Part shown: piece after piece, positions 180-62,118 of the stretch
Layout of the letters: each line of letters opens with the position of its first letter
Position numbering within the stretch: the stretch's first letter is position 1
Origin: Octopus vulgaris
Lineage: Eukaryota
Direction of reading: 5' to 3'
DNA: 64,000 nucleotides
Assembly (NCBI GenBank): GCA_951406725.2
Contig: OX597825.1
Location: 52,762,001 to 52,826,000, forward strand
The notes under the pieces: model-generated
Databases searched by the model: none
Told to the model about the DNA's origin: nothing
What the model saw: only the letters and a program-made list of their open reading frames with translations
Translations under genes and position numbers: made by a program

Positions 180-395
180 TAATAATAAATATTAGGGAAT
201 AAATCCAAACTTACAGGGAAAAATCAGATTTAGGATTGAATCCAATTTTATAGTAAAATATTATATTATATTAAATTAGAGACAAAACCACTATTAGGCA
301 AATCAAACAATGAAAAACTTATGCCAATACATAAGATTATTTAATTTATATTATTTAAATATATAACAAAATTATTAAAAAAATATAATTAATAT

Positions 396-462
396 CACAC
401 TACGATTGTTTCATGGCTGCTAACTTCTTCAAATTTTTGAGTCACAGTCATTCATCAGGTGG
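396..462 (-). ncRNA. Minimal type-I hammerhead ribozyme (mirror copy)
   Basis: Reverse complement of 983-1049; stem III reads GAAACaatcGTA. Confidence 0.65.
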
Positions 463-982
463 TTTAAATATCTAAAATATAATCAGTATTTTTAAGATAT
501 AAATAATATATATAATATAATAATTTTACTTATAATAAACTCTATTATTAAATATGATTATATCAAAATCGACTATAATGTTAAATATTAACTTTAATTT
601 ATAAGGTAGGAAACCCATAATCTAATATCAATATTAGTCTATATCTAATTACATAAATATTTAAAATGACTAATATATATAAATTATCAATGAAAATATA
701 TATAAATATTATAAACACTAATAAAAATGATTATAATATTTATATATATTTTCATTGATAATTTATATATATTAGTCATTTTAAATATTTATGTAATTAG
801 ATATAGACTAATATTGATATTAGATTATGGGTTTCCTACCTTATAAATTAAAGTTAATATTTAACATTATAGTCGATTTTGATATAATCATATTTAATAA
901 TAGAGTTTATTATAAGTAAAATTATTATATTATATATATTATTTATATCTTAAAAATATTGATTATATTTTAGATATTTAAA

Positions 983-1049
983 CCACCTGATGAATGACTG
1001 TGACTCGAAAATTTGAAGAAGTTAGCAGCCATGAAACGATCGTAGTGTG
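983..1049 (+). ncRNA. Minimal type-I hammerhead ribozyme
   Basis: ccac CTGATGA atgactg..cagccat GAAAC gatc GTA gtgtg: canonical core, palindromic stem III ACGATCGT. Confidence 0.8.
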
Positions 1050-1183
1050 ATATTAATTATATTTTTTTAATAATTTTGTTATATATTTAAATAATATTAA
1101 TTAAATAATCTTATGTATTGGCTTAAGTTTTTCATTGTTTGATTTGCTTAATAGTGGTTTTGTCTCTAATTTAATATAATATA

Positions 1184-1224
<41 letters not shown>

Positions 1225-2879: not shown

Positions 2880-3190
2880 CTTTGCACCATTCGAGTGTGA
2901 TCGTTACCAACGTCGCTTCTCTGGCACCTGTGCCAGTGGCATGTGTAAAAAGATTCGAGCGAGGTCATTGCCAGTAGTGACTGACTGGCCCCCGTGCCGG
3001 TGGCACATGAAAAGCACCCACTACACTCTCAGAGTGGTTGGTGTTAGAAAGGGCATCCAGCTGTAGAAACTCTGCCAGATCAAGATTGGAAACTGGTGCA
3101 GCCATCTGGTTTGCCAGCCCTCAGTCAAAATCGTCCAACCCATGCTAGCGTGGAAAGCGGACGTTAAATGATGATGATGATGATGATGAT
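2880..3190 (+). mobile_element. RTE 3' UTR / RTE-tailed repeat
   Basis: Same tail motif and (GAT)n as 2340-2490. Confidence 0.75.
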
Positions 3191-3296
3191 GTGTATATAT
3201 ACATATATTCTTATATATATATATACGTGTATGTACATAAATATATCTGTATAAGCATATATATATATATATATATACATGCATGTATATATATAC

Positions 3297-3327
<31 letters not shown>

Positions 3328-3344
3328 CATACATATATATATAC

Positions 3345-3389
<45 letters not shown>

Positions 3390-3406
3390 CATATATATAT
3401 TTTTAT

Positions 3407-3725
3407 ATCATCATCATTCAACATCCATCTTCCAAACTGGCATGAGTTTAATCGTTTGACTGAAAACTGGGAGCTTCACTAGGTTTCAGTCTTATTTGGC
3501 ACTGTTTCTACAGCTTGATGCCCTTCCAAACACTTTGAAGAGTGAAGTGGATGTTTTTTTTATACCTCTGGGATGGATGCCAATTATGAAACACTGGCAT
3601 TGGCCATGACTACAATCTCACTTGTTTTGACAGGTCTTCTCAACGATGGACCAGCTCCTTCCCACATTTCCAGTCACTCAACAACCACTTTACAGAATGT
3701 ACTGGGTGGATTTATAGGGGCACTA
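3407..3725 (-). mobile_element. Diverged RTE 3' UTR copy
   Basis: (ATC)n then gtttctacagcttgatgcccttcc, the reverse complement of the tail motif. Confidence 0.6.
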
Positions 3726-7513: not shown

Positions 7514-8380
7514 TATCAGATTGAACAAAAAGTAAGTAACATTTTTGAACCATCAAGAATTTGTACTGGACTTTTGGCAGAGTTTAAAAACTTTTTTAAA
7601 CATTTTCTTGCAATTATCTGAAAATACAGACATAGACTTGCCCAAATGCATCAATAAATTAACATTGATATTCTTTTCACTGTTGTTACAATCATCTGAA
7701 ATGGGACTGTCAAAGCTCGATATTCAAGCAATTTTGTTATTCAACTTCAAAAAAGGACATAAAGTAGCTGAAACTGCTTGTGATATCAACAAAACATTTG
7801 ATGAGGAAATGACCAGTGTGTGGCCAGCATGAAAAGAGCTTAAATGATCTTGTAGTGGAAACCTGAGCCTTGAAGATCATGAGCATAGTGGACACTAATC
7901 TGTCATCAATGACTGTCATTTAAAGACCATCATTGAGAAAGATACACATAAAACCACTTGAGAACTGGCAAAAGAACTTAAAATTAGTTAGAAAACTGCC
8001 TGCAACCATTTGCATGTGATTGGAAAATCAAAAGAGCTTGACAAATGGGAACCTCATAGTTTGAATGAAAATCCAAAAATGTGCAGATATGAAATTTGTT
8101 TCTTGTTTCTTTGTAACTAGACCAATCCATTTCTCAACCGCATTGTAACTTGCAATGGTAAGTGGATTCTCTACAATAATAAAGAACATTCTTTGCAGTG
8201 ATTGGACTAAATGAAGCACCAAAACCTTCTCTAAACCCAAGCTCTTCCAAAAGAAGGTTATGGTAACTGTTTGGTGGTGTACTGCTGGATTCATCCACTG
8301 TAACATCTTAAAACCCAGAGAAACCATACTGCAGATGCATATTGCTACGAAATTGTCAAAATGAAAGAAAAACTGCTACC
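7514..8380 (+). pseudogene. mariner (Hsmar1/SETMAR-like) transposase relic with left TIR
   Basis: From ATG at 7701: ILLFNFKKGHKVAETACDIN, LDKWEPHSL, FLNRIVTCNGKWILYNN, KKVMVTVWW; multiple stops. Confidence 0.85.
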
Positions 8381-9012: not shown

Positions 9013-10542
9013 ACCTTGAGTTAAACACCAAGTGTAACAGCAATATTCATCTCCTTCACCAATTTGATACCAGCCTGCATCCTGAGGCTACCCCTGGTTC
9101 AATGATACTTCCTGTTTAGGACCATTTATTTCAAACACCATCTTATTAATGACAAAGTTAGTTTACTAAGTTCTTCATTATTTTCAAAATTAATTGAAAA
9201 CAAAGGCAAGTCTATTTCAAGAGAAATAGGGTAATAAGTTGTTAATGCCATATACTATTAGAATTTTTCACACTGAATCCTAAAACTTGATCTGATCAGA
9301 ATTAGAACACAGAACCAAAGTTCTAGAAATATATCATATTTTAAGAAGGTAGTCTACAACATTGTCTTTCAATAAACTCTAAGTGAGAATGACTTATACA
9401 GTAGACTGTTGCGCAGTGTTCATGGAAAGCTGTTCTATAATCTAATAGATCAAGAAGTAATTTCAGAATGTTATTGTCACAAGAAATGCCTTTATTATCA
9501 TTATCAGTCTGAGTGTTCTTGTGTTTAAAGATCTGCATTAAATCCCCATTTACAGTTCCAATTAAAACCTAATTTATTAGTGGAACAGTTCTCAATTACT
9601 TACAGTATGAAAGTATGCTAGCTTTGACCACTAAACGGTTAAATGGCATTCTGTTAACGAAACAACCACATTGACAATCCAATAAGGTTTGCCTAATTAT
9701 ACACAAAACAAAACAGTCATTGATTTATCTGGAGATAACATCTCATTCTCCAAATGCTATGATTTGTTCTGTGAATGTTATGGGCTAATGATTAAGCTGT
9801 AAGTCTCAGGTGAAGAGCTACTTGTTTGGATTCTATCAATGGTCGTGTTGTGTATTTGGAAAAAGCCTTGTATTGTTCATTTCACTTGGAAGCAAAATTG
9901 GTTTATGAACCAGATAGATTAACTTAATGGTATAAAGAGTAAATGATTTTAAAAAAATCATGGTAAAGGTAATGTTAATGTAATTAAAGTAATAACTTTT
10001 ATATTAAATTACAATCACAGTAGGGAGAAGAGATTAATTTTAAATGAGAAATTTTAGTCGAGAAAGGTAAGGGAGACAGCTCAGAAATATTTATTTATTA
10101 AGAATTAAATGTAGGTATTTAGCTTTCATGCAGAATGAGATTGGACTCTGGGTGCTTCTTGTCATTCCTATAGCCCTATAGTCTCATCTATAATATCAAC
10201 ACTGGCATCTAGCTTAGTGGATGACACCAGAGCTTCAAGCTTTTTGACTTCATAGTTTTCATAAGTTATTAATAAAAAGCAAAATAAATGGCTGAGGAAG
10301 AAGAGGAAAAACTATGAATTATATGGAAGGATAATCTAAAGATTTGGACAGATGATATGCAATGATAATGAATATATACATGTATAAATATAATATATAT
10401 AAATATAATAAAGTATATATATATATATATATATATAGATATATTGATAAAACGGTAAGATAACAAAAGAAAGAAAGAGACCTCAATATTATGTAAATAG
10501 AGGAAATTTATCTATACAATATGTTACATTACTCGGTAGTCA

Positions 10543-10605
10543 AGATAAAACTCTGAGTTTCAGATGCCGAAGTGGAAATCCACAACACCATCTCTTCGGT
10601 TATCT
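10543..10605 (-). ncRNA. Hammerhead ribozyme variant in PLE pseudo-LTR (left arm)
   Basis: Mirror of 14729-14791. Confidence 0.65.
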
Positions 10606-10799
10606 GGCTATTTGAAAACGTTATGAAAAAATACCGTTAAAAGTGAAGGGAAATTACTCTGTTATAACTCTGCTTTGCCTGCGTACTTATACATCGCTCG
10701 CATTTTTCGTCATAAAAATTATATAAAAATACATAAAAATATATAAAAATATATAAAAATATATAAAATCTTCTTGGGACATAACACAGAAAGCATGTT

Positions 10800-12713
10800 C
10801 TATCCGTTTTCTTTAGGGGACCAAAAACGTAACAGAAATTTAGTCACATGTGGGCATGATCCGAAAAGCTCTGTCCTTGTATTTAGACATGTGGTAGGGT
10901 CTAAGCTGCTTTTCCAGATAAGCCATCTCTCCATGTCGCATAAACCGCACCTTCCGCTGCCGTTAGTGTAGGGCTTACATCTGGCCAAAATCTTCCATTG
11001 TATGTTATAATCGACACCTTTATCTCTTAAAGACCAAATATGATTGGATAATTGTGTCGCTTTTCTTTTGTTCCAGTGCCTAAAGCTCAAAGTGTGGTTA
11101 TTGAACCTGGCCTTGAAATTACCCTCTGTCAGGCCCACGTATTTCTTCGTCGAAACGGTGTCTTTAGTGGTTATAGAGTTTACGGTAGCTTCATATATGA
11201 TGGTCTTGGACATGCAAGCTCCATTTAGCGGGCACAATTCTTTATTCCTGCATGAACAGCTGTTTTCTTCTTGTGTTTTTTGTATGTTATGATTGATTAT
11301 GTTTTTAAAATTGGTAGTTGAACTAAAACTAATTTTTAAATTGTGTCTATTGAAGAGTTTCCTATAAGCATGGTTAACTGGAAAATGTCTATCTATCAGT
11401 GCTAGGAAATATTTACCTATATTGAAGGCCACCTCGGGTGAGTAAGGGGGTGTAAACCAGATGACCTTCCTATTTCTATTATTCCTTTTCCTTACTGTTG
11501 GGCTGGTGATAGGTGTATATTTTATTTTTTCGCTAAAACCACTATCTTTTAAAGCTTTATTATAAACTGGGGCAATGCTATTGAAGATGTCCTCATTAGA
11601 TGAGAGGCTAGAAATCCTCTTACTAATATTTTTAACTAAATTTTTGAATACTATAGGGGGATGGCATGAACCTACATTAATATAACTTAGTCTATCATTG
11701 GGCTTCCTATAAGGCTTATAAATATTATTATTAAGATCTAAGGAAACGTCTAAGAAATTGACAACCGTCAGGTTAGTGTCTATAGTTATACTAAGTCCGA
11801 AGTGTTTCATTAACTGGATAATATCCTTCCTAAAACGATCTTGTGCTGGTCCATTTGTATTAGCTGTTAAGGCGAGGGCATCATCTTTGTAGATGGCGAA
11901 ATGTACGTTAGGGAATGTCTTACCGAAGGTATCTAGGAGAAAGAGTCCAATTAGATCACAGATGCCTGCCCCATCATATGAACCCATGCTCACATCGAAA
12001 GCGTCCTCCGTGTCGGTGTTTTTTACCCACTTTGCATTCTCACTGAAAAGTAATGTCTTTCTAGCATGGAAGATTATATCCTTATCATTGGTACTAATTT
12101 CTATGAAGTCACTAGCGAAGATTAGGGCTTTATCTAGCAGTTCTTTAGAGATAGAGGCATAAAAATCAACAATATCGAATTGTGTAAACCTCGCTTTTTT
12201 CTTATTCTTAATAGCTTTAAACCAGTCTACGACTTCTATACTATTGGACCATTGCACTAGCCTAGTATCGGTCTTAATTTTCATATTTATTTTATCTAAA
12301 ATTTCTTTGCTAATAATCCCTAGTTCTGACTTGGCTGGGTTGATAAGCCTACATTTAGGGTTGGAAAGGAAGTTTTCTTTGTGATCTTTAATAGTAATAA
12401 AGGCCTCTTTTTGGGGGAGGGTTTCTATTTTTTTATCTAATTTAAGTTTAGCGGCGATGACGCTAGCTTCTTTATTAATTTCGTTATATGTCTGTGCCCT
12501 AGCCTTAGTATAATTATTAGTAATGCTGTTGTGTAAGAGTTGTGTGTATTTGCTGTTATCTACCAGGTATAAGTTCTTGGTTTTATCCGAAAAAAGTGCT
12601 TTTTTCTTGGAGCTTTTTATATGATCAATATCTTTTTTCAATTTATGTTGGAAATTGTTAAAAGACTTGCTGAAGATCATGAGCAAAATAAAGTTTCGTA
12701 AGTCTTTTAACAA
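10800..12713 (-). CDS. PLE polyprotein (reverse transcriptase + GIY-YIG endonuclease), 5'-truncated but uninterrupted
   Basis: FDIVDFY, MGSYDGA, YKDD and FLDVSL RT motifs; CSCx5CPLNGAC; IIYEATV..YVGLTE; CGLCDME; CPH terminus, as in Naiad PLEs. The first ~15 aa are antisense read-through of the fold-back junction. Confidence 0.9.
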   Translation of the reverse strand: MLKDLRNFILLMIFSKSFNNFQHKLKKDIDHIKSSKKKALFSDKTKNLYLVDNSKYTQLLHNSITNNYTKARAQTYNEINKEASVIAAKLKLDKKIETLPQKEAFITIKDHKENFLSNPKCRLINPAKSELGIISKEILDKINMKIKTDTRLVQWSNSIEVVDWFKAIKNKKKARFTQFDIVDFYASISKELLDKALIFASDFIEISTNDKDIIFHARKTLLFSENAKWVKNTDTEDAFDVSMGSYDGAGICDLIGLFLLDTFGKTFPNVHFAIYKDDALALTANTNGPAQDRFRKDIIQLMKHFGLSITIDTNLTVVNFLDVSLDLNNNIYKPYRKPNDRLSYINVGSCHPPIVFKNLVKNISKRISSLSSNEDIFNSIAPVYNKALKDSGFSEKIKYTPITSPTVRKRNNRNRKVIWFTPPYSPEVAFNIGKYFLALIDRHFPVNHAYRKLFNRHNLKISFSSTTNFKNIINHNIQKTQEENSCSCRNKELCPLNGACMSKTIIYEATVNSITTKDTVSTKKYVGLTEGNFKARFNNHTLSFRHWNKRKATQLSNHIWSLRDKGVDYNIQWKILARCKPYTNGSGRCGLCDMERWLIWKSSLDPTTCLNTRTELFGSCPHVTKFLLRFWSPKENG

Positions 12714-14514
12714 TTTCCAACATAAATTGAAAAAAGATATTGATCATATAAAAAGCTCCAAGAAAAAGCACTTTTTTCGGATAAAACCAAGAACTTATAC
12801 CTGGTAGATAACAGCAAATACACACAACTCTTACACAACAGCATTACTAATAATTATACTAAGGCTAGGGCACAGACATATAACGAAATTAATAAAGAAG
12901 CTAGCGTCATCGCCGCTAAACTTAAATTAGATAAAAAAATAGAAACCCTCCCCCAAAATGAGGCCTTTATTACTATTAAAGATCACAAAGAAAACTTCCT
13001 TTCCAACCTAAATGTAGGCTTATCAACCCAGCCAAGTCAGAACTAGGGATTATTAGCAAAGAAATTTTAGATAAAATAAATACGAAAATTAAGACCGATA
13101 CTAGGCTGGTGCAATGGTCCAATAGTATAGAAGTCGTAGACTGGTTTAAAGCTATTAAGAATAAGAAAAAAGCGAGGTTTACACAATTCGATATTGTTGA
13201 TTTTTATGCCTCTATCTCTAAAGAACTGCTAGATAAAGCCCTAATCTTCGCTAGTGACTTCATAGAAATTAGTACCAATGATAAGGATATAATCTTCCAT
13301 GCTAGAAAGACATTACTTTTCAGTGAGAATGCAAAGTGGGTAAAAAACACCGACACGGAGGGCGCTTTCGATGTGAGCATGGGTTCATATGATGGGGCAG
13401 GCATTTGTGATCTAATTGGACTCTTTCTCCTAGATACCTTCGGTAAGACATTCCCTAACAGTACATTTCGCCATCTACAAAGATGATGCCCTCGCCTTAA
13501 CAGCTAATACAAATGGACCAGCACAAGATCGTTTTAGGAAGGATATTATCCAGTTAATGAAACACTTCGGACTTAGTATAACTATAGACACTAACCTGAC
13601 GGTTGTCAATTTCTTAGACGTTTCCTTAGATCTTAATAATAATATTTATAAGCCTTATAGGAAGCCCAATGATAGACTAAGTTATATTAATGTAGGTTCA
13701 TGCCATCCCCCTATAGTATTCAAAAATTTAGTTAAAAATATTAGTAAGAGGATTTCTAGCCTCTCATCTAATGAGGACATCTTCAATAGCGTTGCCCCAG
13801 TTTATAATAAAGCTTTAAAAGATAGTGGTTTAACGAAAAAATAAAATATACACATATCACCAGCCCAACAATAAGGAAAAGGAATAATAGAAATAGGAAG
13901 GTCATCTGGTTTACGCCCCTTACTCACCCGAGGTGGCCTTCAATATAGGTAAATATTTCCTAGCACTGATAGATAGACATTTTCCAGTTAACCATGCTTA
14001 TAGGAAACTCTTCAATAGACACAATTTAAAAATTAGTTTTAGTTCAACTACCAATGTTAAAAACATAATCAATCATAACATACAAAAAACACAAGAAGAA
14101 AACAGCTGTTCATGCAGGAATAAAGAATTGTGCCCGCTAAATGGAGCTTGCATGTCCAAGACCATCATATATGAAGCTACCGTAAACTCTATAACCACTA
14201 AAGACACCGTTTCGACGAAGAAATACGTGGGCCTGACAGAGGGTAATTTCAAGGCCAGGTTCAATAACCACACTTTGAGCTTTAGGCACTGGAACAAAAG
14301 AAAAGCGACACAATTATCCAATCATATTTGGTCTTTAAGAGATAAAGGTGTCGATTATAACATACAATGGAAGATTTTGGCCAGATGTAAGCCCTACACT
14401 AACGGCAGCGGAAGGTGCGGTTTATGCGACATGGAGAGATGGCTATCTGGAAATACAAGGACAGAGCTTTTCGGATCATGCCCACATGTGACTAAATTTC
14501 TGTTACGTTTTTGA
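12664..14514 (+). pseudogene. Inverted PLE polyprotein copy with frameshifts and an ~30-bp deletion
   Basis: ORF pieces 13109-13486, 13557-13844 and 13933-14514 nearly identical to the left arm; retains native-looking DLLKIMSKIKFRK. Confidence 0.88.
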
Positions 14515-14728
14515 TCCCCTAAAGAAAACGGATAGAACATGCTTTCTGTGTTATGTCCCAAGAAGATTTTATATATTTTTATATATTTTTATATATTTTT
14601 ATGTATTTTTATATAATTTTTATGACGAAAAATGCGAGCGATGTATAAGTACGCAGGCAAAGCAGAGTTATAACAGAGTAATTTCCTTCATTTTTAACGG
14701 TATTTTTTCATAACGTTTTCAAATAGCC

Positions 14729-14791
14729 AGATAACCGAAGAGATGGTGTTGTGGATTTCCACTTCGGCATCTGAAACTCAGAGTTTTATCT
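14729..14791 (+). ncRNA. Hammerhead ribozyme variant (CCGAAGA core) in PLE pseudo-LTR
   Basis: agataa CCGAAGA gatg..catct GAAAC tcaga GTT ttatct. Confidence 0.65.
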
Positions 14792-14847
14792 TGACTACCG
14801 AGTAATGTAACATATTGTATAGATATATATATAGATATAGATATATA

Positions 14848-14915
14848 TGGCAGTGCCCCAGCATGGCCACAGCTCATGAGCTGAAACTAGATAAAATAAA
14901 AATAAAATAAATAAA
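14848..14915 (+). mobile_element. SINE 3' tail fragment
   Basis: ggcagtgccccagcatggccacagc..tgaaac plus A-rich tail, like the end of the 26740 family. Confidence 0.55.
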
Positions 14916-15146
14916 TATATTGCGGTACAACAATGCTCCAATATTTAGTGGAAATAGCAGCTGATAATATATGATGCTGTGTATATACTGGCAAGGAGTT
15001 CAAAACCTAGGTTCTAGATTATCCACATCTGGGTTGTACATTTTTCTAATGTTTTTCCTACAGATGAGATGACATTTTTTATCTTTGCCAGTATATACAC
15101 AGTGAAGCTTTACTATTGCATCGTATTTTAACAACTGCTATTTCCA

Positions 15147-15532
15147 CATATTAAGATGGCTAGTATACTTTACGTTGTCGAGCGCTTACTGTTTACATCT
15201 CGCTCAGAGATTTATTATTGCTTTCAGACCATTTTTCGAAATCAGTGACAGTGGTTACTGGAAAAACATTAAATAGATATTCATAAACAGGTCTCTCTTA
15301 TCGAAAACCCATGATTAGCGTGTGTTGACAAGAGACAATAATCTCGAAACTGCAGTCCATGCGTATCACTTAGGTTTTTGAGAGGGGATGACCTCCCTTT
15401 GCGAATATCATTAAAGGGCACAGAATTGTGTCTAAAGCCAACTGGAGACGATGATCTCCTGGGGCTAAAAAGCTACAGTATCACACCCCACCCCTAGTGG
15501 TTAGCCATATTAAGATGGCTAGTATACTTTAC
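15147..15532 (+). mobile_element. Non-LTR retrozyme-like unit (359-bp monomer + 27-bp terminal repeat)
   Basis: Identical catattaagatggctagtatactttac at 15147-15173 and 15506-15532; internal HHR; no long ORF. Confidence 0.7.
15318..15364 (+). ncRNA. Minimal hammerhead ribozyme with U3-A8 core
   Basis: gcgtgtg TTGACAA gaga caataa tctc GAAAC tgca GTC catgcgt. Confidence 0.75.
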
Positions 15533-15684
15533 ATTGGTGCATTGTTGTACCACTATTCTATATTTATACTTTAACCTTGTGGTGTTTGTTTTACTGGACA
15601 GCAATTCTATTGCATTGCACTATTTAATTATTTTATATATATATATATTGGGGTCATGGGTATAATTCTTGTGGAGAAATGGGT

Positions 15685-28966: not shown

Positions 28967-28969
<3 letters not shown>

Positions 28970-29046
28970 ACTAAAAATTAGGGTGTCTGAGAGACACCAT
29001 CATGCCGGCATGGTGGTGTCTCTCAGACACCCTAATTTTTAGTTGT
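28967..29046. repeat. 80-bp spacerless palindrome
   Basis: 40-bp arms, one mismatch, centre GCCGGC, within a (TA)n-flanked insert. Confidence 0.9.
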
Positions 29047-32454: not shown

Positions 32455-34830
32455 CGTCATCCTCATCATCATCGTCACTTAACGTTCGTTTTCCATGCTG
32501 GCATGGGTTGGACGGTATAACTGGGGACTGGCAAAGAGGTTGCACCAGGTTTCAATCTGATCTGACAATGTTTCTACAGCTGCATGCCCTTCCTAATGCC
32601 AACCACTCTGAGAGTCTAGTGGGTGCTTTTTACATTCCACCGGCACAGGTGCCAGTCAGGCAATACTGGCATTGGCCATGTTTAGATGGTGCTTTTTACA
32701 TGCCACCAGCATAGGACCCAGTTGGAGCGGTGGGTTGGTCAGGATGGGCTGGCATCAACCATGTTCAGATGGTGCTTTTTACGTGCCGCCTGCATGGGGA
32801 GCCTGTCATGTGACACTGGCAACAATCCATGCATGAATGGTGCTTATTGTGTGCCACCAGCACAGGAGCCAGTCAGGCGGCACTGGCATTGGCCACAACT
32901 ACAATTTCCATTTTTTATTTCGGTTTAATTGAGATTCTGATTCTAATTTGATTTTGATTTTTGATTTTACTTGACTCAATATGTCTCCTCAAGCTTGGCA
33001 TGTCACCCGATGATTCAAAGGTACTTTTTAAAAGGGCTGGTTATGCAACACTGGTAAAGGCTATGGCAGTGATCTTACTTTACTTGCCTGGTCTTCTCAA
33101 ATACAACTTATCTCCAGAGGTTTCAGTCTCTTGTCATCACCTCTGTGAGGCCCAACGTTCGAAGGTTACACTTCATCACCTCATCCCATGTCTTGGGTCT
33201 CCCCCTTCCATGGGTTCTTTCCACTGTTAGGGAATGACACTTCTTCACACAGCTCTTTGGTGTTTATTGCCCCTGTGCATCTGCTGCACACAAAAGCTAT
33301 CATCCTGGTTAACCTTCCTTTGATGTTGCTGCACCTCTTATGCATCCATAGCTTACACTAGGTACATCTTATGGAGTTTCTACCAACACCTTTTCTACAG
33401 ATTGAGCAGGGCCATCTACCTGAAGGGGTTTGTGATTTGTTTGCCTTCCTACTTACTGGGACTTTGATTTTTGCAACATTGACTCTAAGGCTCTTTGATT
33501 CTAAACTTTGCTTCCTCTCTAGTTCTGGTTATGATTCAGCTATGAGAGCAAGGTCATCAGCATAGAGGAGTTTGCAGGGGCAGCTTGTCTTGTATTCTTC
33601 TGGTATTACCTTGAGGACTATGATGAATAAGAAGGAGATGGGGGCTGATCCTTGGTGAACCCCTACTTCTACCTGGAATTCTTCCTTATACTCATTGCTG
33701 GCCCTTACCTTACTGACAGCATCCCTGTACAGCTCTTATTAACCACCTGCCTATCCCTTATCTGGTGGGCTTGAAACACATCGCCCACCAGATAAGGGAT
33801 TGGGGGACCCTGTCAAACGCTTTCTCCAAGTCAACAAAAGCCAAGTCTAGGAGTTTATCTTTAGCTAGATATTTCTCCAACAGTTGCCTTGTCAGGAATA
33901 TAGCATCAGTGATGCTTCTACCTGGCACAAAACTGAACTGCATATCATCTAAGCAGACTCTCTCCCTAATTACTTGTGTTAAGACGCTCTCCATGATCTT
34001 CATCACCTGACCCAGCAGTTTCATACCCCTGTAGTTATTTCTATCTAAAGCTTCACTTTTTCCTTTCTAGCAATTGACTACGGTGCTGCTACAACAGTCA
34101 TTGTGTATGACTCCTTCAGGAAATACCTGATTTACAATACAGGTGACTAGACCATAACCCACACCACCAGATACTTTAAGCACCTCAGCAGTGATTCCTG
34201 ATGGGCCAGGGGCTTTTCCTGTCTTCATATCCTTAAATGCTTTATCTACCAGGGTGCTATCGATTCTGGTAGCTGGTCCCCCAAATGGGTCAACATTTGG
34301 CAGGCTCTCCTCCTCTCACTCATTCTCTATATTCAGCAGCCTTTCCTAATGGCATCTCCAAGCATCTTTATTTGCAGAATCAGTAAAAGCAAGTGCACCA
34401 TCATCCATGCAGATATTTCTCTCCTGTAACATCACAATTTTCTCTCACACACTGTCTTGTAATCCAAAATACTTTGGTTCTTTGGTCCTCATGTTGCTGA
34501 GCACTAGAAAACTTCTTCTTTTCTGATTCTTCCTTGACTATATATATATATATATGTCTCCTGGCCTCACTTCTGGCTATCTGGTACAGTTCCATGCTTC
34601 TCCCACTCTTCCAGGTTTTCGAGGCCTGTTTCTTTACTCCAATGGCCTTGTCAACCGTATTATTCAACCACCACATTACCCAGGGACTTTGCACCAACTG
34701 CAGATTTGGTTTATGATGCTCAGTAAGCTGTCCCATAGGAATTTCCAGTTACCCTCTATGTCCCAAGTCTGTAGCTCCTCCACCCTCTCATCAAATATCT
34801 CAATGAGGATATCCCTAAATCTCTGACCAT
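32455..34830 (-). mobile_element. RTE-clade LINE, 5'-truncated and degenerate, with 3' UTR
   Basis: ORF 33758-34024 MQFSFVPGRSITDAIFLTRQLLEKYLAK..DLEKAFDRVP; LLYADDL; KAPGPSGI; tail at 32455-32640. Confidence 0.85.
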
Positions 34831-36357: not shown

Positions 36358-36718
36358 TTCACTCTGGTAAAGAAACCTCTGTCTCCCTAAAAGAATTAAA
36401 ATTCCTGTTAGTACACCGAGAAGTAGCAGTTCATTAGATGCAAAGAAACTGTAGAAACCCAAACCACTATAATGCAATGGTAAGGAGGTTTGTTACCAGA
36501 TAAGGTCATTTGGTAAGCTAACATTACATATTTTGGATTGTTTCATGGGCAGATAAAAAAATTACTTAAAAGATCAATAGATTTAAAAGATAGCTTCTTA
36601 AATGATAAATCAGTTTTGATATCAAATGACATTTTCTAAGGATAAAAATCTTGAAGGAGTTCTACATGATGAATACAAAAAGAGCCTGCAGGTATATCTT
36701 TGCCAAGATAGTTGTTGA

Positions 36719-37127
36719 AATGCTAAGATCAGTTATTGGTGCTCTGAAGAGCAAGCAATTTTGGCGTTGATGGAATATGTTTCTCAGAAATCTCTTCTCC
36801 ATTTTTATCCTAATCTAAATTGTGGATAAAAAAAGTTTACATTTGGTGTAATTTCTCTCTTCTAAGTGGAGACCATGCAGTTCTTTCATAAATTGTTCAG
36901 CACAATTCAATACCTGCACTGGACAAGTGCAGGTATTGAATTGTGCTGAACAATTTATGAAAGAACTGCATGGTCTCCACTTAGAAGAGAGAAATTACAC
37001 CAAATGTAAACTTTTTTTATCCACAATTTAGATTAGGATAAAAATGGAGAAGAGATTTCTGAGAAACATATTCCATCAACGCCAAAATTGCTTGCTCTTC
37101 AGAGCACCAATAACTGATCTTAGCATT
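36719..37127. repeat. Perfect ~202-bp-arm palindrome with 5-bp spacer
   Basis: aatgctaagatc..cctgcact GGACA agtgcagg..gatcttagcatt. Confidence 0.92.
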
Positions 37128-38206
37128 GCATTATAGTGGTATGTCCACAATGCAGAATAAACGTTCAGCCAAGTGGATCAATGCCTTGGCAAGAGCTAAT
37201 GGCAAGTTTCTGAATGGCAATGAATTAGAAGTACCAATAACACAGAGCAAGTGGTGATACTTGTCAGGTCTATGGACTTATTTTCTCCTATCAGTTAAAC
37301 CCCTGAAGATTTCCCAAACACATGAAGGTCAACAGGGTCACTGCCTCTGTTCTGCTTCTGGATGGTTTATCTTGTATTAATTGTAAAAGACTGGATGGTA
37401 TAACTTTATGTGTTTGGGTGCCTCTTCCAAAGTCCTGACTCTTTATCAGCAGAACAGCTGAATATATTTCTAAATATTCAATGTTATCTACCAGTTATAT
37501 TTTTCAACCAATTGAAATGACTGATGTTGGGGGTCCTTTAATAATTGTCTTGAGTTGAAAATTTATTGAGAAGAAAGGGGAATAGCATGAGGGTGCTTAG
37601 TTTCATGAAAGAATCTCTGTAAATATTGTATAAAGCAACGACACTTGTGTTCTTTCTTGTCTTCACTTGTATATTGTCAATAAACTAGTTCTTTTGACAA
37701 GTCTATATTTATATTTTATACAAACTGTCAGTATGGAATTACCAATGGTTATGTTAGTCATGGTGAATAATTCACCGATCTCACATTTTATTTAGTGCTT
37801 AAGTTGAAATAATGTAAGATTTATATCACCAAATAGGAAAAATAAATGTAAAAGAGAATTATTTAGGAAGATATCTATATATCTTAATTCTATAACCACT
37901 GTAATGAATTTTATTGTAATGTTCCATATATTTGTTTTATTAGATGAAGAAGGGAAGAGGGAGAGGAGAGGGAAGGAAACTACATACTGCTGACTAATGT
38001 TTGGTTTTTCTATAATAAACATTAATTAGTAATGTGTCAAGTCACATTTATTACAACTAATATTACATGCCAAACAACTCGAAGAAGAGTCAAGAATGGC
38101 CATTCAACATGCTAGAAATAGCAACCAAACATATCACAAATTATAATGTGCCATCATAAAAGCAGAAAGGATACATTACACATTTTACTTTTAGATATAT
38201 CTTAGG

Positions 38207-43674: not shown

Positions 43675-44385
43675 ATGGATGACAATGAGTGCAAGACCAT
43701 TCTTCAGCAGAAGTGGAAGCTACCAAAGCAGTTTATATACCCAAAGAATCAGCAGAACAGAAGGTACTCTCCAACATGGGAAGAGAAGTTTCCATGGCTT
43801 AGGTATTCTAAGTCACTGGATGCAGTTTTTTGTTCAGAGTGTATTTGTTTTGCTGCCCAAGATATGAGCAATCCGGAATTTGTAGCCAAACCATTCCAGG
43901 ATTGGAAGAATGCCTGTGGTCAAGAAAGAGAGTCTCTAATTCATCATGGAAAGTTAGAACCCATCAAGGAGCAATGAAATGGCTAATGAATGTTTGATGA
44001 TTTGCCAAGAAGAAAAGAAATCGCTCACAGAACATTTTTCTAAAGCAATATGCTCAGCAAGTTGAAAAGAACCAATTAGCTCTTTTATGCATTCTTGATG
44101 TAATTACTTCCCTTGCAAAAAGAGGAATTTTACTTACTGGAAGCTGGTCCTATGAGAAGAAGGAAGAAGACAGTAATTTCAAATTTTTTATTAAGTGGAA
44201 AGCGAAAGATGATCCTGATTTTGCAGCCTTTCTGGAAAATGCACCAAGGAAAGCCACATATTTATTTCCTGTTATCCAGAATCAACTGATTGAATGTCTT
44301 GCAAAGGTCATCAGGACGCAAATCATTAATGAAGCCATGAAGGTTGACTATTTCAGTATCATGGCTGATGAAATTTGTGATGCAA
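43675..44385 (+). pseudogene. hAT transposase N-terminal relic (TTF-type zinc finger + DUF4371-like region)
   Basis: FPWLRYSKSLDAVFCSEC, FQDWKNA, NAPRKATYL..IQNQLIE, YFSIMADEICD. Confidence 0.85.
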
Positions 44386-44597
44386 ATGGTTCTTTTGGCT
44401 TTCGAAAACGACCTTTTCTTTCTTTTCCTATATTTTTTGTCAAGTTAGAATTTCTCTGTTTTGGTCAGGATTTTCCCATTTCTTTTTTCTTGTATAAAGC
44501 AAATGGACAGAAGCATTTAAAAAGAATTAAATTCATAGAAGCGAACAATATCAAGAATGTTAATTTTAATCGTAATGATGGAAAGGATTAACATTTT

Positions 44598-60661: not shown

Positions 60662-60665
<4 letters not shown>

Positions 60666-62118
60666 TGTTATATTTCGGAATGGTCATATTGCCAGTATAG
60701 CCAATAAAAACACACGCACTATATATTTGGTGTTATTTTGCTTCAGTGATATTTATTTTTTACATTAATCTTAATCTTATTTCGGCCAAAGTTCTTTCGT
60801 CACACTCCTGTGACCGCATCAGTGGTCCTTTGTTTTCTTCTCACTTACTTGTGTCTCTCCTTACTAACCGTCAGCCATTTTGTATTTCTATTGTATGTCT
60901 TCATTTGCGCATGCTTATATCTCTATGTGCGTCTATGTTTATTTAGTGTGTGTGTGGGGGGGATGCCTGTAATATTTGTATCTTCTGGTTATATACATTC
61001 TTGTAATTTGTATTTTGTTTTTGTTGTTGTTGCTTTTGTTCTAATTTTGTTCATGTGTTTACATCCACCCATTATTATCATTACATATGCTTGTATGTAT
61101 GTATGTATAACAACAATATTAGTAATAATAATAATAAATCTAATCGAAAAAAAAAAAAAAAAAAGAATATACATATACATATATATACATACATATACAT
61201 ATACATATATATATATATACATATATACACACATATATACACATATACATATACATATATATACACATACACATATATATAGATATTCATTTCTATTTCT
61301 TTAATTACCTGTGTATTTACTATGTTTGCAGGATCCACTATTGTCATATGTTGTGGTGTGCGCTATTGCTCCATTCTAGTTTTCTATTCAGGCTAGGTTT
61401 ATTTTCTATTATATGTGTAGCTTCTGTAATTTATCTAATTGTTGCATCTGTTCTATGTGTGGACAATATCTTAATCTCTATGTTATTGATTGATCCCCCG
61501 TGTTCTTGTTCGGCGTGTTGGTACAGAATCGATGTATATGTGTATATATGTGTGTATATATGTATATATATATATATGTATATGTATATGTATGTATATA
61601 TATGTATATGTATATTCTTTTTTTTTTTTTTTTTTCGATTAGATTTATTATTATTATTACTAATATTGTTGTTATACATACATACAAGCATATGTAATGA
61701 TAATAATGGGTGGATGTAAACACATGAACAAAATTAGAACAAAAGCAACAACAACAAAAACAAAATACAAATTACAAGAATGTATATAACCAGAAGATAC
61801 AAATATTACAGGCATCCCCCCCACACACACACTAAATAAACATAGACGCACATAGAGATATAAGCATGCGCAAATGAAGACATACAATAGAAATACAAAA
61901 TGGCTGACGGTTAGTAAGGAGAGACACAAGTAAGTGAGAAGAAAACAAAGGACCACTGATGCGGTCACAGGAGTGTGACGAAAGAACTTTGGCCGAAATA
62001 AGATTAAGATTAATGTAAAAAATAAATATCACTGAAGCAAAATAACACCAAATATATATAGTGCGTGTGTTTTTATTGGCTAAACTGGCAATATGACCAT
62101 TCCGAAATATAACAATAT
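60662..62118. mobile_element. PLE 3' fragment with inverted pseudo-LTR (arms 60662-61250 and 61532-62118)
   Basis: ~590-bp near-identical arms; minus-strand spacer encodes the GIY-YIG C-terminus SILYQHAEQEHGG..IKILSTHRTDATIR*ITEATHIIENKPSLNRKLEW; HHR motifs at 60784-60828 and 61950-61994. Confidence 0.85.

Follow-up and report, generated by a model that had tools for sequence, protein, structure and literature searches.

A long head-to-head palindrome of a Hydra-clade Penelope-like element in Octopus vulgaris

Introduction

Two copies of a Penelope-like element (PLE) lie head to head in a stretch of 64,000 nucleotides of the Octopus vulgaris genome (contig OX597825.1 of assembly GCA_951406725.2), referred to below as the window, and together form a palindrome of about 4.3 kb. 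The locus raises the question of how a retroelement comes to be inserted as two inverted copies of itself and, before that, whether the second copy is real and to which clade the element belongs. Comparison with sister insertions in the same genome points to a real-looking, recent and apparently dead Hydra-clade insertion with a long, ordinary inverted arm.

Anatomy of the locus

Alignment of arm against arm recovered two inverted arms at the coordinates originally predicted. The features of the locus, in window positions, are as follows.

10414..10441, no strand: left-hand (TA)n target tract; family copies likewise end in (TA)n
10442..10508, minus strand: 3' 'tail' of 67 nt, in the left copy only; it agrees with the 3' ends seen elsewhere in the family, and the right arm lacks it
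10509..12668, minus strand: left arm, a 5'-truncated copy starting at unit position 359, with no indels and six substitutions of its own
10543..10605, minus strand: left hammerhead-like motif with the variant core CCGAAGA and a predicted cleavage site after 10549
10800..12743, minus strand: 647-codon open frame that encodes native residues 87-708 from position 12668 onward
12664..12668, no strand: inversion junction, 1 nt of exact microhomology inside a 4/5 match (GACTT versus native GACCT)
12669..12699, plus strand: spacer of 31 nt, made of native element sequence that runs on into the right copy
12700..14825, plus strand: right arm, an inverted 5'-truncated copy ending at the fixed short end of the family
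after 14450, plus strand: deletion of 29 nt in the right arm, with 3 nt of AAA microhomology
14729..14791, plus strand: right hammerhead-like motif, same variant core, predicted cut after 14785
14826..14848, no strand: right-end TA/TAGA microsatellite; the flank beyond it is unlike the left flank

The alignment spans 2,128 columns with 14 mismatches, one of which lies just beyond the exact end, leaving 13 substitutions within a symmetry whose exact limits are 10509 and 14825 around the spacer. The right copy, spacer included, begins at unit position 327. Several 1-bp indels and a deletion of about 30 bp had been noted in the right arm, and the alignment bears this out with seven 1-nt indels and the 29-nt deletion. 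When polarized against 38 other copies, all eight indels are assigned to the right arm and none to the left, and the substitutions are evenly divided (six left-specific and seven right-specific). The window contains no N, and further palindromes occur elsewhere in it.

The symmetry does not end at the 3' end of the element, as had been thought, since the left copy extends 67 nt further; the right copy terminates at an internal site that is fixed in the family and there meets the TA/TAGA tract. The one-sided extension corresponds to the PLE 'tail' described in the available portions of PMC8557442 and PMC3846280. Insertion into (TA)n, as in Hydra elements, is seen at both ends here and at nearly all family ends inspected.

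Coding capacity and clade

A natural copy of the element elsewhere in the genome (L032) has an ORF of 708 codons and was used as the reference for the intact protein. Measured against it, the proposal that the palindrome spans nearly the whole ORF needs correction, with 622 of 708 residues (88%) covered; the start codon, the RWK motif and the 5' UTR are missing, and both arms lack the first ∼86 codons. The left arm had also been described as an uninterrupted ORF. Its 647 codons are indeed open, but the first 25 are read-through of the junction and not element protein, and the reading frame of the right arm is broken into pieces. The left frame contains the DKT motif, the RT motifs FDIVDFY, MGSYD and YKDD, a CxCx5C linker and, at its C-terminus, a GIY-YIG-type nuclease, for which Pfam gives a match near the C-terminus (residues 530-562, E = 0.012) that falls under the curated cut-off. 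The window copy, whose 5' UTR and initial 86 codons are missing, is predicted to be dead.

The element had been identified as a Naiad. According to the available text of PMC8557442, Naiads are marked by an N-terminal nuclease, DKA, CxC and GxKF/Y before the RT, a CCHH motif and units of 3.4-4.4 kb, and are without a canonical hammerhead. Hydra elements are described there as having a single ORF with a C-terminal nuclease, RWK, DKT, CxCx5C, CxxC and CxH, no CCHH, a GxKF/Y motif that is not conserved, (TA)n targets, units of less than 3 kb and hammerheads. In L032 the RT motifs (residues 250-349) precede the nuclease motif (from residue 577), RWK lies at residue 37, in the part truncated from the window copy, and DKT at residue 114, and the cysteine motifs are CSCRNKELC at residue 557 (CxCx5C), CGLC at residue 660 (CxxC) and CPH at residue 691 (CxH), so that all of the Hydra protein marks are present. 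No cysteine occurs between residues 572 and 649 of L032, and hence none inside the GIY-YIG core, and CCHH is absent; no GxKF/Y motif was found in this copy and its sole CxC falls after the RT. A Naiad identity is thus rejected: the nuclease is not N-terminal to the RT, neither DKA nor CxC nor GxKF/Y precedes the RT, and the tandem unit of ∼2,589 nt lies outside the Naiad size range. By its motifs and by-eye comparison, the element is a Hydra-clade PLE.

Hammerhead-like motif

A hammerhead ribozyme had been proposed in the 3' UTR of each arm. A hammerhead-like motif is present on both arms and is identical between them, but it is a variant, with the core CCGAAGA and an extra U before GAAA. Across 39 loci, 86 of 90 cores read CCGAAGA and the other four CCGATGA. 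In a layout made by hand, stems I-III and the cut site are arranged as in Hydra-1_Obim, from which the core differs by U4C and the extra U. A relaxed scripted scan missed the motif since it required stem II to abut GAAA, and an Rfam scan of the window gave no hammerhead match, returning merely simple-repeat microRNA matches below threshold. The U4C change is reported as a natural variant that is less active in vitro yet sustains a viroid in vivo (PMC3088659, available portion), and weak activity and a need for dimers are reported for PLE hammerheads in which stem III is as short as this (PMC4209133, available portion).

The family across the genome

A search with the left arm against the whole O. 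vulgaris genome (2.8 Gb), in which 40 of 1,805 candidates were scored, gave at least 39 other loci that are ∼99% identical over nearly the whole query, and this likeness upholds the view that the insertion is recent. The best-scoring copies, 38 of these loci, were fetched with 10 kb around each and define the tandem unit of the family. A frame of at least 700 codons is kept in 12 of the 25 full-length copies examined. An inverted arm is present in 35 of the 38 other long copies; 30 of these arms end at the short site, three at the tail and one elsewhere, and one is cut by the edge of the locus. Locus L050 carries an inverted stub of 76 nt that was missed by a later filter.

Exact patterns of an element end followed by TA occur 961 times in the genome for the short end and 1,270 times for the tail end, with none for reversed controls. 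On one contig (C1), the range spanned by the first 100 tail ends has 64 listed short ends; 50 of these point outward, away from a tail end no more than 15 kb distant, and no outward short-short or tail-tail pair occurs among the C1 ends listed. From this contig we drew an unselected sample of 32 pairs, picked by their ends alone; L097 dropped out of an initial set of 33 loci through the end filter, 16 pairs under 0.6 kb were left out and one 13.8-kb pair was taken only in part (as L064).

The inversion had been regarded as the extreme case for a PLE. This does not hold within its own family: the mirror of 2,145 nt is exceeded in L052 and L064 (2,503 each), L056 (2,290) and L033 (2,215), i.e. 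in four of the 38 best copies, and in one of the 32 unselected pairs (L096, 2,455). Counting the locus of L064, two of 50 C1 pairs are longer, which places the window mirror in the upper few per cent; by extrapolation, a few dozen mirrors of such length are expected genome-wide. The window palindrome is therefore a long yet ordinary example of the layout of its family.

Reality of the right arm

The original prediction allowed that the right arm might be a fold-back chimera, and such a chimera could stem from a sequencing read or from the assembly. The distribution of indels gives this some substance, as eight on the right and none on the left compare with 1.3 per arm expected from sister loci (P = 7 × 10⁻⁵), and five of the seven single-base indels fall within runs of three or more like bases. 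However, a read that folds back copies one strand and would repeat the tail and the left flank without adding any element sequence, whereas the right arm contains 31 nt of native sequence missing from the left arm and ends at the short end of the family, followed by a different flank. That short end is not peculiar to this locus, given its 961 genomic occurrences and its pairing with tail ends. The anatomy of the locus thus answers the concern, since its flanks differ and so do its two ends, each of them fixed in the family, and a chimeric origin is hardly credible; a false right arm is very unlikely. The evidence for the locus comes from one assembly.

The indel excess itself is a separate matter. 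There is about an even chance that it is in part consensus error in a hairpin that is hard to sequence, the alternative being real decay. Similar indel clusters were observed on three other inverted arms of the family. Among the best-scoring copies, which were selected for likeness to the main arm, the two arm classes differ by eight against 31 indels, but a family-wide bias of inverted arms disappears in the 32 end-chosen pairs (19 against 13, P = 0.38; substitutions 40 against 30), and the 8-against-31 imbalance is therefore a selection artefact. The excess is local to the window locus and not family-wide.

Public sequencing runs were also consulted. Twenty of the 24 listed contain over half of the query words, with no RNA run listed among these. 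No listed contig of runs X1, X2, X3 and X12 (12640-15600) carries the letters of the right arm at 12959, 13108 or 14056 or its extra base at 13460, family alleles being seen, and none listed among the contigs of X1, X2, X3 and X9 bridges the centre of the palindrome. Contigs from such runs drop rare variants, for two runs 76-80% was covered, and the insertion may be missing from the samples; these results consequently weigh neither way.

Formation of the inversion

We consider it probable that the locus is one recent Hydra-clade insertion of two truncated copies, double-primed after the nuclease had cut both strands. A single element would have entered a TA microsatellite as two 5'-truncated copies placed head to head. 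Its nuclease would cleave the target on both strands, and a separate cDNA would be primed from each of the resulting ends, one at the tail site (the left arm) and the other 67 nt further in (the right arm). The cDNAs would then stop near unit positions 359 and 327, and their 3' ends would anneal by a few bases and be filled in. That the two stops lie a mere 32 nt apart is likely to be chance. Function is superfluous for explaining the window copy.

The rival reading also takes the insertion as real, but has a single tail-primed cDNA fold back and prime itself, with resolution at an internal TATA-like site and a later crossover that flipped the spacer. Self-priming is the published interpretation of PLE junction palindromes (PMC3846280, available portion), and the tail has been ascribed to resolution of an intermediate by the nuclease (PMC8557442, likewise). 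Much of the family evidence suits both readings. Direct joins account for 36 of 63 other junctions and inserted bases for the remaining 27; microhomology at the direct joins averages 2.1 nt against 0.74 by chance and reaches at least 2 nt in 23 of 36, where 18% would be expected (P = 10⁻⁹). Variants common to both arms of one locus number 117 of 219, compared with 3.8% (maximum 20%) for shuffled pairs, from which it follows that the arms of a locus derive from one parent; the window arms have five subfamily alleles in common and differ at one site (unit 1532). Self-priming predicts the same sharing of variants and the same microhomology. The two readings part over which arm extends further. 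Under a fold-back the tail arm should in every case extend further 5', and it does so at 16 of 27 C1 junctions, but the short arm is the longer at the other 11, by up to 1.5 kb, and also at the window locus, where it is the right arm; a simple fold-back from a tail-primed cDNA cannot give that. Loci L087 and L091 have the whole unit on the short arm and merely ∼300 nt on the tail arm, the arms of L071 are without any overlap that a fold-back or recombination could use, and near-symmetric joins are not enriched (three of 32, against 1.7 by shuffling; P = 0.24).

Each arm at the window locus holds element sequence that the other lacks, which together with the microhomology of the family favours two separately primed cDNAs, and we think it somewhat likely that joining of such cDNAs at their 3' ends is the mechanism of the family. 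The argument from polarity is stronger for the family than for the window copy, since at this locus a crossover between arms of 2.1 kb could flip the spacer after a fold-back. The 13 substitutions between the arms, against 5.8 expected from sister loci (P = 0.006), suggest that the window copy is older or noisier than average. Self-priming followed by a crossover appears rather unlikely here. Double priming is also favoured by in vitro work on a Poseidon PLE, the protein of which is predicted to be a dimer: both strands are cut and extended, and the two start sites used bracket the tail (PMC11167929, available portion). For PLE head-to-head inversions we lean, if only slightly, towards double priming over self-priming as the process that this family exhibits, with both RT start sites used and with two RNA units, derived from a single parent, as templates; the fixed pairing of long with short ends, the fact that either arm may be the longer, and the joins with microhomology would be its marks. 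The term 'twin priming', current for L1, was not met in a limited check of the PLE literature, and the available portion of a retrozyme preprint (10.64898/2026.07.22.740005) contains nothing on PLE inversions.

Hairpin RNA

It had further been suggested that read-through of the palindrome would give a dsRNA hairpin of 2 kb, a potential target of ADAR editing or source of endo-siRNAs directed at the family. The arms are 99% complementary and would pair if transcribed, and small RNAs from rotifer Penelope copies are mostly antisense (PMC3846280, available portion). Both copies point outward without a 5' UTR, however, so that an outside or antisense promoter would presumably be needed, and nothing sets the window copy apart from an estimated several hundred inverted sisters. 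The window has 149 long open frames, and a Pfam scan of 54 of them returned only transposon-type or unknown-function matches (Mos1 HTH, part of an RT, DUF4371 and, weakly, DUF6498), although a large intron is possible. Between the arms there is no ADAR-type signature: A/G differences in the sense of the element make up three of the 13 substitutions and the others are mixed. On these sequence grounds such a role is improbable for the window copy, and the idea, if valid, would be equally applicable to hundreds of sister insertions.

Significance

The window locus matters little alone, being a long case of a layout already described for PLEs, in a clade that has also been described. The family matters somewhat more: for the origin of PLE inversions, self-priming has been proposed (PMC3846280) and two start sites have been shown in vitro (PMC11167929). 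With about a thousand young insertions that have two fixed ends, the predictions of the rival readings can be counted directly in this family. The kilobase palindromes that so young a family leaves behind are, in addition, candidates for a source of dsRNA, provided that some of them are transcribed.

Comparison with known systems

The standard PLE insertion, as described in the available portions of PMC8557442 and PMC3846280, has an inverted 5'-truncated copy at the 5' end and a tail at one end. The window locus shares with it the head-to-head inversion, the one-sided tail and the microhomology at the join, and differs in a mirror that is long (2.1 kb) and nearly without spacer; the tail, at 67 nt, also exceeds the 30-40 nt usually given (PMC8557442). 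Naiads resemble the element in being PLEs with a (TA)n preference and inverted insertions (PMC8557442), but their domain order is reversed, they have DKA in place of DKT and their unit is larger. The in vitro cutting and extension of both strands pertains to the Poseidon clade and not to Hydra.

The nearest known element, judged from the part of its sequence available, is Hydra-1_Obim from Octopus bimaculoides, with identity at 72 of 97 residues along one RT-thumb stretch (counted by hand). The two are alike in having a unit of less than 3 kb (2,589 nt here, 2,507 nt there), a single ORF, a (TA)n target, the motifs RWK, DKT, CxCx5C, CxxC and CxH and a hammerhead-like layout with a short stem III. 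They are nevertheless distinct families, with RT motif C reading YKDD here and YRDD there and with a hammerhead-like core of CCGAAGA plus the extra U here and CTGAAGA there.

In the twin priming of L1 elements, two target ends prime two cDNAs that are joined through microhomology, resulting in an inversion. The arrangement proposed here is alike in its two primed cDNAs, its microhomology join and its inversion. To our knowledge, the 3' end is never duplicated in L1 inversions; here, unlike in L1, it is present on both arms, and two RNA units, either from a tandem transcript or as two molecules, would therefore be needed.

Several further palindromes and probable transposon fragments accompany the main head-to-head palindrome, which consists of two 5'-truncated Hydra-clade Penelope-like element (PLE) copies.

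Additional features in the window
258-1188: second palindrome; arms of ~460 nt, 98%; set in (TA)n
3010-3558: older or smaller palindrome; self-match 72%
7536-7829: fragment with Mos1-type HTH; Pfam match
12680-12678 (-): chance ATG in the antisense spacer; codon 22 of the left open frame
28967-29046: older or smaller palindrome, 80 nt; self-match 97%
33761-34066: RT fragment; Pfam match
36716-37130: perfect inverted repeat, 205 nt; 5-nt loop
43040-43518: older or smaller palindrome; self-match 76%
44001-44588: DUF4371 fragment; Pfam match
60662-62118: third palindrome; arms of ~590 nt, 99%; spacer ~280 nt

The palindrome at 258-1188 carries a hammerhead-like core (CTGATGA at 987), is extended by ~80 nt on its left end alone and gave no match to the Hydra-clade PLE family of the main locus; it looks like a second head-to-head stub of the PLE type. 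The palindrome at 60662-62118 also contains a hammerhead-like core (CTGATGC at 61956) and bears its extension on the right end alone, followed by (TA)n; it represents a third family, unrelated to the other two. The perfect inverted repeat lies outside (TA)n, and a search of its right arm for a hammerhead core found none. The 80-nt palindrome sits shortly after a TA run. The three Pfam-matched fragments are probably remnants of transposons.

The chance ATG in the main-locus spacer shares the reading frame of the left ORF, so that a transcript, if produced, could by its sequence yield a protein without the first 86 residues.

At three sister loci of the family (L062, L063 and L064), the inverted arms contain 5 indels in 1,160 nt, 6 in 566 nt and 11 in 798 nt, respectively, clustered and of 1-6 nt each; these clusters, which resemble those of the main-locus right arm, are possibly consensus errors. 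At loci L064, L066, L067 and L068, units of this family are arranged in arrays, multi-unit tandem as well as nested inverted, that in places run past 10 kb.
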